The notes under the pieces were generated by a model. That model did not search any database, was not told the origin of the DNA, and saw nothing but the letters and a program-made list of their open reading frames with translations. The position numbers and the translations under genes are program-made. DNA of 28,490 nucleotides from IMG/VR virus record IMGVR_UViG_2585427739_000003; one strand, 5' to 3'. Shown piece after piece: positions 26,204 to 26,878 of this stretch. Every line of letters begins with the position of its first letter. The first letter of the stretch is position 1. This stretch comes from a virus (taxonomy: Duplodnaviria > Heunggongvirae > Uroviricota > Caudoviricetes).

Positions 26204-26878
26204 ATGAAAAACACTATCAGCGAACGTATTCGGAATCGTCGAAAAGACGTTGGATTAACCCAACAGCAGGTTGCGAAAGCAATCGGCATATCTCGTGTAT
26301 CCGTAACAAAATGGGAAAATGGCTCTTCAAAACCTGACGGTGAGAATTTGCATCTACTGTCAAAATTGCTTTCCAAATCTCCTGAATGGATTCTTTATGG
26401 AAAGGACGGTCACGATAAAACCGATGATCTGCGTCTGAATCAGTATCCTTACATTAGTGACAACATCGCCCGGTTGCCCGTTTTAACGTGGGAACAGGCT
26501 GGTTATTGGGATATGAGTTGTCCAGTAACCGAGATTCCTGGCATTAAGAATTGGGTTGATGTCATGACAAAAACCGCTGAAAACTCTTTTTTATTGCATG
26601 TTGAGGGAGATGCGATGACAAACTCTAACGGCCTCCCAACCATCCCCGACGGATCTACCGTGCTGATCACACCATGCTCAAGTAACATTAGAGAACTGGT
26701 GGGAAAAATAATCTTAATCCAATTGGAAGGAACGCCAAACGTAACACTAAAAAAAGTTGCGATTGACGGACCAAACATCTATCTGTTGTCACTGAATCCG
26801 CTTTACAAACCCATCGAACTGAATGGTGGTTACACCATTAAAGGTAAAGTTTCACAAATACATCAATACTTAGACTGA
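26204..26878 (+). CDS. CI-type repressor: XRE helix-turn-helix plus LexA/S24-like C-terminal domain with Ala at the catalytic Ser position
   Basis: HTH GLTQQQVAKAIGISRVSVTKWENG; C-terminal domain aligns to lambda CI (VEGDAM vs VEGNSM; TLKKVAID vs TFKKLIRD; QAG cleavage site kept). Start is uncertain: the ORF track begins at a TTG at 26105, and ATGs occur at 26162 and 26204. Confidence 0.8.
   Translation: MKNTISERIRNRRKDVGLTQQQVAKAIGISRVSVTKWENGSSKPDGENLHLLSKLLSKSPEWILYGKDGHDKTDDLRLNQYPYISDNIARLPVLTWEQAGYWDMSCPVTEIPGIKNWVDVMTKTAENSFLLHVEGDAMTNSNGLPTIPDGSTVLITPCSSNIRELVGKIILIQLEGTPNVTLKKVAIDGPNIYLLSLNPLYKPIELNGGYTIKGKVSQIHQYLD

Follow-up and report, generated by a model that had tools for sequence, protein, structure and literature searches.

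The CI-type repressor encoded at positions 26204..26878 (+) of the window, by which we mean the whole 28,490-nt stretch of viral DNA analyzed here (IMG/VR record IMGVR_UViG_2585427739_000003), carries alanine at the position of the serine nucleophile in its LexA-like C-terminal domain. We judge it likely, with a probability of roughly 70%, that this protein is a natural non-cleaving repressor of the ind-minus type and that its prophage is uncoupled from RecA and the SOS response; prophages with the Ala allele are probably blind to the usual SOS signal. In the mechanism that we propose, the protein would be a functional immunity repressor, belonging to a lambdoid prophage whose immunity region is of the Qin/DicA type, and the S24 C-terminal domain of the protein would have lost the nucleophile via a single T-to-G change that turned a TCG serine codon into a GCG alanine codon. 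The Ala protein would still dimerize and bind GTAAC-N4-GTTAC operators at OR and OL, and the S24 domain would be retained as an oligomerization and cooperativity module. RecA*-stimulated self-cleavage would be impossible, which would cut the prophage off from the SOS response.

The gene, identified by ORF translation, Pfam, and phmmer, encodes 224 amino acids plus a stop. Its N-terminal DNA-binding domain (residues 1-66, 26204..26401, +) contains an HTH_3 match at residues 9-63 (Pfam, E 2e-16) and aligns closely to the N-terminal domain of P22 C2 (phmmer, E 2.6e-12); it is also 54% identical to DicA, a match limited to the first ~70 residues. The C-terminal domain (residues 92-216, 26477..26851, +) is assigned to the Peptidase_S24 family by Pfam (PF00717, E 9.5e-17), by hhalign, and by a structural model searched with Foldseek. 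This AlphaFold2 model had a mean pLDDT of 82.5, and its best Foldseek matches were lambda repressor and LexA structures (3bdn, E 4e-10), with a TM score of 0.78 between its C-terminal domain and 1kca; the active-site loop (residues 131-150) was modeled less confidently, at pLDDT 66-69. The PGAP annotation starts the gene at 26162, which gives a 238-aa "LexA family protein", but the 26204 start fits the family N-terminus better. The 14 extra codons of the PGAP version (26162-26203) overlap both OR palindromes described below and show little conservation in the Salmonella relative. An mRNA beginning at the 26204 start could be leaderless, as are those of lambda cI and paaR2.

A preliminary description of this gene had proposed that its C-terminal domain is in register with lambda CI around both catalytic positions, with Ala at the nucleophile position and with the general-base lysine and the Ala-Gly cleavage site kept, and had suggested alignment to known relatives as a check. 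All of this was borne out by four alignments: phmmer against the lambda repressor in the PDB, MAFFT with lambda CI, LexA, and UmuD, which confirmed the Ala column, and hhalign against lambda CI and against LexA. The hhalign query, a family profile of 35 sequences, matched lambda CI over its full length with 99.8% probability and LexA with 96.3%. The register was the same in all four methods. Ala137 (codon GCG, 26612..26614, +) falls opposite Ser149 of lambda CI and Ser119 of LexA; the retained Lys183 in TLKKV (codon AAA, 26750..26752, +) falls opposite the general bases Lys192 of lambda CI and Lys156 of LexA; and the retained Ala99-Gly100 in WEQAGYW (codons GCT GGT, 26498..26503, +) falls opposite the cleavage sites Ala111-Gly112 of lambda CI and Ala84-Gly85 of LexA. 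The phmmer alignment to 3bdn, for instance, pairs "llhvegdamt" with "fwlevegnsmt", "tlkkv" with "tfkkl", and "eqagyw" with "vqagmf". The protein thus has the fold, the lysine, and the Ala-Gly site of the self-cleaving S24 family, whereas the serine of the G-x-S-M motif is missing (VEGDAMT). Because the self-cleaving family is defined catalytically by that serine, the repressor is best described as a non-peptidase homolog within the S24/LexA superfamily and the lambdoid CI repressors.

Replacement of this serine by alanine is the standard route to non-cleaving LexA-family proteins. In LexA and lambda CI the substitution abolishes self-cleavage and leaves folding and RecA binding intact, and it is the S-to-A forms that have been crystallized and imaged on RecA filaments. 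Matches of our model in the PDB included such structures, namely LexA S119A (1jhh), Mycobacterium tuberculosis LexA S160A (6a2s), and Pseudomonas aeruginosa LexA S125A with RecA (8s7g). By the precedent of these substitutions, the repressor is predicted to be unable to cleave itself, either with RecA* or at alkaline pH. The residue is the same, at the same position, as in the laboratory mutants lambda cI ind-minus/S149A, LexA S119A, M. tuberculosis LexA S160A, and P. aeruginosa LexA S125A; non-cleavable mutants of this type keep DNA binding, lose self-cleavage, and cause trans-dominant non-inducibility. Unlike the laboratory mutants, the substitution described here is natural, has come close to fixation in an immunity type that is widespread in E. 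coli, and recurs in Salmonella.

The repressor sits in a region with the hallmarks of lambdoid immunity: in addition to the HTH domain of the protein itself, there is a divergent cro-like gene, and operator-like sites are repeated between cro and cI and at the left operon. A perfect palindrome, GTAACAATAGTTAC, lies in the cro-cI intergenic region (26142..26155); a second OR palindrome, GTAACATTGGTTAC (26190..26203), abuts the ATG at 26204; and an OL palindrome, GTAACTCTTGTTAC (26953..26966), lies 3' of cI, ahead of the ydfA-dicF-dicB operon. These two OR sites and one OL site are the three perfect GTAAC-N4-GTTAC sites found, against 0.43 expected. All three are kept in both Ser and Ala alleles, and therefore these phages should be homoimmune. 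The divergent gene (25897..26112, -) is DicC-like and belongs to the P22_Cro family; downstream of it is a ydaT gene (25475..25900, -), which is CII-like by analogy (PMC8630535). Just 3' of the cI stop, a hairpin followed by a U-run (26882..26910, +; -18 kcal/mol, z -4.2), missed by a simple immunity-region scan, is a likely intrinsic terminator. A simple promoter scan of the immunity region found no consensus promoters. The left operon 3' of cI has the Qin order ydfA-ydfB-ydfC-dicF-dicB, and the DicF sRNA (28026..28077, +; Rfam 72.5 bits) lies within this leftward, PL-equivalent operon, a predicted target of the repressor. Since dicF and dicB are downstream of cI, the cell-division inhibitors of the prophage are predicted to be under the control of the Ala repressor. 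With its operators, cro, ydaT, terminator, and left operon conserved, the immunity cassette looks functional, and from this conservation we infer that the repressor acts on PR and PL and confers superinfection immunity.

The cassette has relatives on several sides. Like lambda CI and P22 C2, the repressor has a two-domain architecture, a divergent cro, palindromic operators at OR and OL, the Ala-Gly site, and the lysine; unlike them, it has Ala for the nucleophilic Ser. Its partners also differ from those of lambda, in that the cro, cII, and left-operon genes are of the DicC/YdaT/dicB type, and the dicC-like cro and the ydfA-dicF-dicB left operon are as in Qin. By its published description, the PaaR2-YdaS-YdaT system of CP-933P is also similar, with a CI-like repressor divergent from a pair of Cro-like and YdaT (CII-like) genes (PMC8630535); unlike the repressor in the window, PaaR2 is followed by a toxin-antitoxin pair.

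Several other features of the window were noted. The hokD toxin ORF (21934-22089) and a sok antisense RNA (22087-22258; Rfam 106.7 bits) make up a type I toxin-antitoxin pair within the nin-like region (21934-22258, -). An iraM-like anti-adapter ORF (17592-17927, +) adjoins a match to the STnc100 sRNA (17953-18142, -; 131 bits). On the promoter-distal side of the Q antiterminator gene are two Rfam tRNA matches (18842-19091, -), annotated as tRNA-Arg and tRNA-Ile in related genomes; they occupy the position at which Stx phages carry tRNA and stx genes, and a related O178:H19 prophage has stx2a there (6871-8111 of locus L004). Between the lysis and terminase modules lies an iss/bor-type gene for a serum-survival lipoprotein (~14885-15178, +), annotated in the identical region of two carrier loci (L001 and L002).

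The Ala allele is common. The repressor gene was found in 702 of 5,426 complete E. coli genomes, and an exact 55-mer around the Ala GCG codon matched 681 of these carriers, a prevalence (12.6%) that is inflated by clonal sampling. Ala thus accounts for at least 97% of this immunity type in E. coli (at least 681 Ala, at most 21 others), and GCG was present in all 80 IMG/VR loci retrieved. Carriers of the Ala allele include ST131 and O111 EHEC strains; when carriers were sampled at even spacing, about half had the allele typified by JJ1886 (ST131). The question of whether Ala is fixed in the clade, raised in the preliminary description, thus has a divided answer: it is near-fixed in E. coli, but the wider clade contains Ser alleles.

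The closest Ser allele was found in FDAARGOS_1077 and seven other genomes, mostly O55:H7. It is 96.4% identical to the window at the DNA level, is located at the yccA site in FDAARGOS_1077, and has 29 scattered differences, among them TCG, the one-nucleotide neighbor of GCG. A second Ser allele (TCA, 84% DNA identity) is carried by the Stx2a-converting prophage of O178:H19, at the rspB site, and the more distant homologs in the MAFFT alignment (45-52% identity) all have Ser. Ala is thus the derived state, arising from a single T-to-G change of TCG to GCG. One particular Ser 55-mer, in which the variant base lay one position off center so that it seeded on Ala alleles too, had no exact match in any genome. 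In Salmonella (P0005, 67% DNA identity), Ala is encoded by GCA within diverged surroundings and is an independent event, so that serine has been lost at least twice.

A further Ala allele, that of E. coli P0002 at the yccA site (GCG, 86% DNA identity), is near-identical to the window (~97%) only in ~100 nt that include the Ala codon (nt 361-462; L010 10361-10462 against window 26522-26623), a patch that suggests either gene conversion or a second origin of Ala. Between the C-terminal domains of this allele and the window, omega was 0.05 and dS 0.7. We considered this low ratio as evidence that Ala has persisted for a long time and rejected that reading, since the window has a far nearer neighbor in a Ser allele (L095); the restriction of P0002 identity to the patch around the codon, with gene conversion or a second origin as its explanation, undercuts the argument as well.

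Loss of the serine also occurs farther afield. Among 94 confidently aligned representatives (clustered at 50% identity) of related HTH-S24 proteins, the position is occupied by Ser in 84, Thr in 5, Ala in 4, and Ile in 1, so that Ser is absent in 10 (about 10%); all four remote Ala clusters also lack Ala-Gly. Unlike these clusters, the repressor in the window has only its serine changed and has kept Ala-Gly, which fits a recent change. In a survey of CI proteins from Stx phages, every clade with an S24 domain had kept the serine (PMC8951638). Our literature search found no description of the protein (WP_000103684, WP_001394126) or of a natural Ser-to-Ala CI. Serine loss in S24 homologs is thus no rarity, and what is new here is an unusually prevalent and very young Ala variant. 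Other changes were seen in the close relatives P0022, P0062, P0075, P0010, and P0030, which comprise the variants VQVGHW, VQAVVW, MQAVTW with RR for KK, and EQISKW, and one fully degenerate Arsenophonus copy. With such sporadic variants of the cleavage site and general base, point loss of SOS cleavability seems recurrent in this repressor family.

Among the 83 loci of the Ala clade, which represent 23 DNA alleles, the variable codons of the C-terminal domain comprised 21 synonymous and 5 non-synonymous cases, a pattern of purifying selection. Because variation is mostly synonymous, the domain is evidently being kept, most plausibly as an oligomerization module. The cassette has also moved. Copies at least 98.8% identical were found at three attachment sites (potC, ompW, and yccA), and the integrase, replication, Q, and lysis modules to which they are attached vary. 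In a comparison of 85 loci, homology around cI ended at several distinct left and right breakpoints, and the only block always shared was that at about 25500-27100. The three sites and the mosaic breakpoints argue against a dead element that is passed on by vertical descent alone.

These observations bear on the foremost rival to our reading, namely that the prophage is simply grounded: Ser-to-Ala would be a domestication lesion that locks the prophage permanently, the allele would have spread only by vertical descent or through recombination involving dead DNA, and the element would be decaying. Several carriers do show signs of decay. An IS66 is inserted in the portal gene of L001 (1507-5273); IS100 and IS1203 independently interrupt the exonuclease gene in different carriers (L002 37217-41647; L096 11487-16574), and in L002 the tail fiber gene is affected too; and in O111 11128 the integrase is frameshifted and IS1203 is present. 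Many copies of this prophage type therefore seem to be decaying, which fits simple grounding as well. Likewise, no repressor with >60% amino acid identity was found among 50,697 phage records, even though the flanks of the gene are present at 93-99% DNA identity in isolated coliphages that carry other immunity genes. This absence is suggestive of poor inducibility, but it is weak evidence, because that collection also lacks the rare relatives of the Ser type. Against grounding, near-identical cassettes are found together with different integrases at three attachment sites, mosaic junctions are numerous, non-synonymous variation in the repressor is low, and the late genes of the window are uninterrupted, so that this copy looks intact. 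We therefore regard permanent grounding as possible but improbable. The preliminary description had envisaged a prophage either locked in lysogeny or induced by another route such as an antirepressor; strict locking fits poorly with the three attachment sites and many mosaic backgrounds, and as for the second half of that proposal, no antirepressor gene was found.

A more ambitious version of the non-cleaving reading, which we put forward only tentatively and hold to be somewhat less probable still, is that the Ala cassette is a positively selected, horizontally spreading module of SOS-proof immunity. It would have originated from an O55:H7-like Ser allele, swept through E. coli at several sites, possibly been copied into a divergent allele by gene conversion, and originated anew in Salmonella; it would be mobile in a RecA-independent manner and would silence Ser-type prophages, including Stx2a prophages, in trans. 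Silencing in trans is expected on our main reading as well: since ind-minus repressors are trans-dominant, immunity conferred by an Ala repressor should be SOS-proof in trans and should silence homoimmune Ser-type prophages, such as the related Stx2a prophage.

If the non-cleaving repressor is ever relieved, derepression would be RecA-independent, most likely by rare bistable switching of the Cro/DicC type. DicA/DicC behaves as a bistable switch (PMC10448788), and PaaR2/YdaS is a bistable switch that is SOS-independent (PMC8630535). Among the prophages of O157 Sakai, those whose repressors lack a peptidase motif were not induced by mitomycin, yet Sp10 was packaged spontaneously (PMC2669165), and a RecA-independent exit would be consistent with this precedent. 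The Ala repressor thus resembles DicA of Qin, GfoR/GftR of Gifsy, and the repressors of Sakai Sp4, Sp6, Sp9, and Sp10 in that SOS-independent lambdoid immunity is predicted for it (PMC10448788, PMC2669165). The DicA, Gifsy, and Sakai repressors lack any S24 domain and, where studied, are controlled by antirepressors; in the repressor described here, by contrast, the S24 domain is complete and just one of its residues is dead. HK022 was considered as a natural non-inducible comparator and set aside, since cI is unannotated in its record and a tblastn search of its 22-30 kb region gave no relative.

A trans-acting antirepressor would be a less likely exit than Cro/DicC-type switching. As a rival explanation, it would have a small binder, encoded in cis or by another prophage and possibly LexA-controlled, relieve the repressor in the manner of the Gifsy repressors and DicA/Rem. 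The idea draws on the similarity (54% identity) of the N-terminal domain to DicA, whose activity is relieved by the antirepressor Rem (PMC10448788), on known trans-acting antirepressors (PMC3121763), and on a 90-aa ORF (21494-21766, -) that lies between a DUF968/ydfU-like gene and hokD, the position of rem in Qin. That ORF, however, belongs to phrog_1212, a family of unknown function and a different PHROG from that of Rem, to which it is unrelated; we therefore rejected it as a Rem-type antirepressor. BLASTP and tblastn searches with Rem as query found no homolog, whether in the window or among nine carrier loci, and the annotations of the two carrier loci L001 and L002 include no Ant, Rha, or KilAC gene. 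Nor do potential LexA sites favor a LexA-controlled antirepressor: boxes of the form CTGT-N8-ACAG with at most one mismatch were not enriched (16 found, 9.4 expected), no LexA box was located in a promoter, and the only perfect sites were inside the portal gene and inside IS100. On this evidence we regard an antirepressor route as unlikely, and a non-cleaving repressor with occasional spontaneous switching as the better account.

Cleavage in trans is far less probable. Here the Ala protein would remain a substrate and be cut by a co-resident, Ser-bearing S24 repressor, which would explain why Ala-Gly and the lysine are kept; indeed, even the Ala allele of Salmonella has kept both the PVLTWEQAG.W block and the block with the lysine, and LexA and CI fragments carry out intermolecular cleavage in vitro. 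Their retention is equally well explained by the youth of the mutation, whose Ser neighbor is one base away, together with structural roles of the two blocks; moreover, the four remote clusters with Ala have no Ala-Gly site left, and the route requires a homologous active partner in the same cell. Least probable of all is that the protein cleaves itself by means of another nucleophile or that Ala is an artifact, for which we found no evidence: four independent alignments agree on one register, the solved structures of LexA-family proteins use Ser-to-Ala as their standard non-cleaving mutant, and the presence of the identical codon in 681 genomes and all 80 IMG/VR loci excludes sequencing error and argues against assembly or annotation error as its source.

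The textbook way out of lysogeny is SOS induction, which is also what drives the release of Shiga toxin and the transfer of genes by phages when antibiotics are given. The Ala repressor would be a natural off switch for this response, made of one residue, in a repressor carried by roughly one-eighth of sequenced E. coli genomes, a fraction that is clonally inflated. The labels "LexA family protein" and "S24 peptidase", under which such proteins are annotated, hide this functionally decisive difference. Nature also provides near-isogenic controls, in the TCG Ser allele of O55:H7 and the Ser allele of the Stx2a prophage, which make the prediction directly testable. The value of the case lies in the prevalence of the allele, its clinical hosts (ST131 and O111), its possible dominant effect on homoimmune Stx2a phages, and the existence of natural one-nucleotide controls. 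If the prediction is true, a sizeable class of apparently complete prophages would be unresponsive to quinolones and mitomycin C, and Ala prophages could suppress the induction of homoimmune phages that share their operators.
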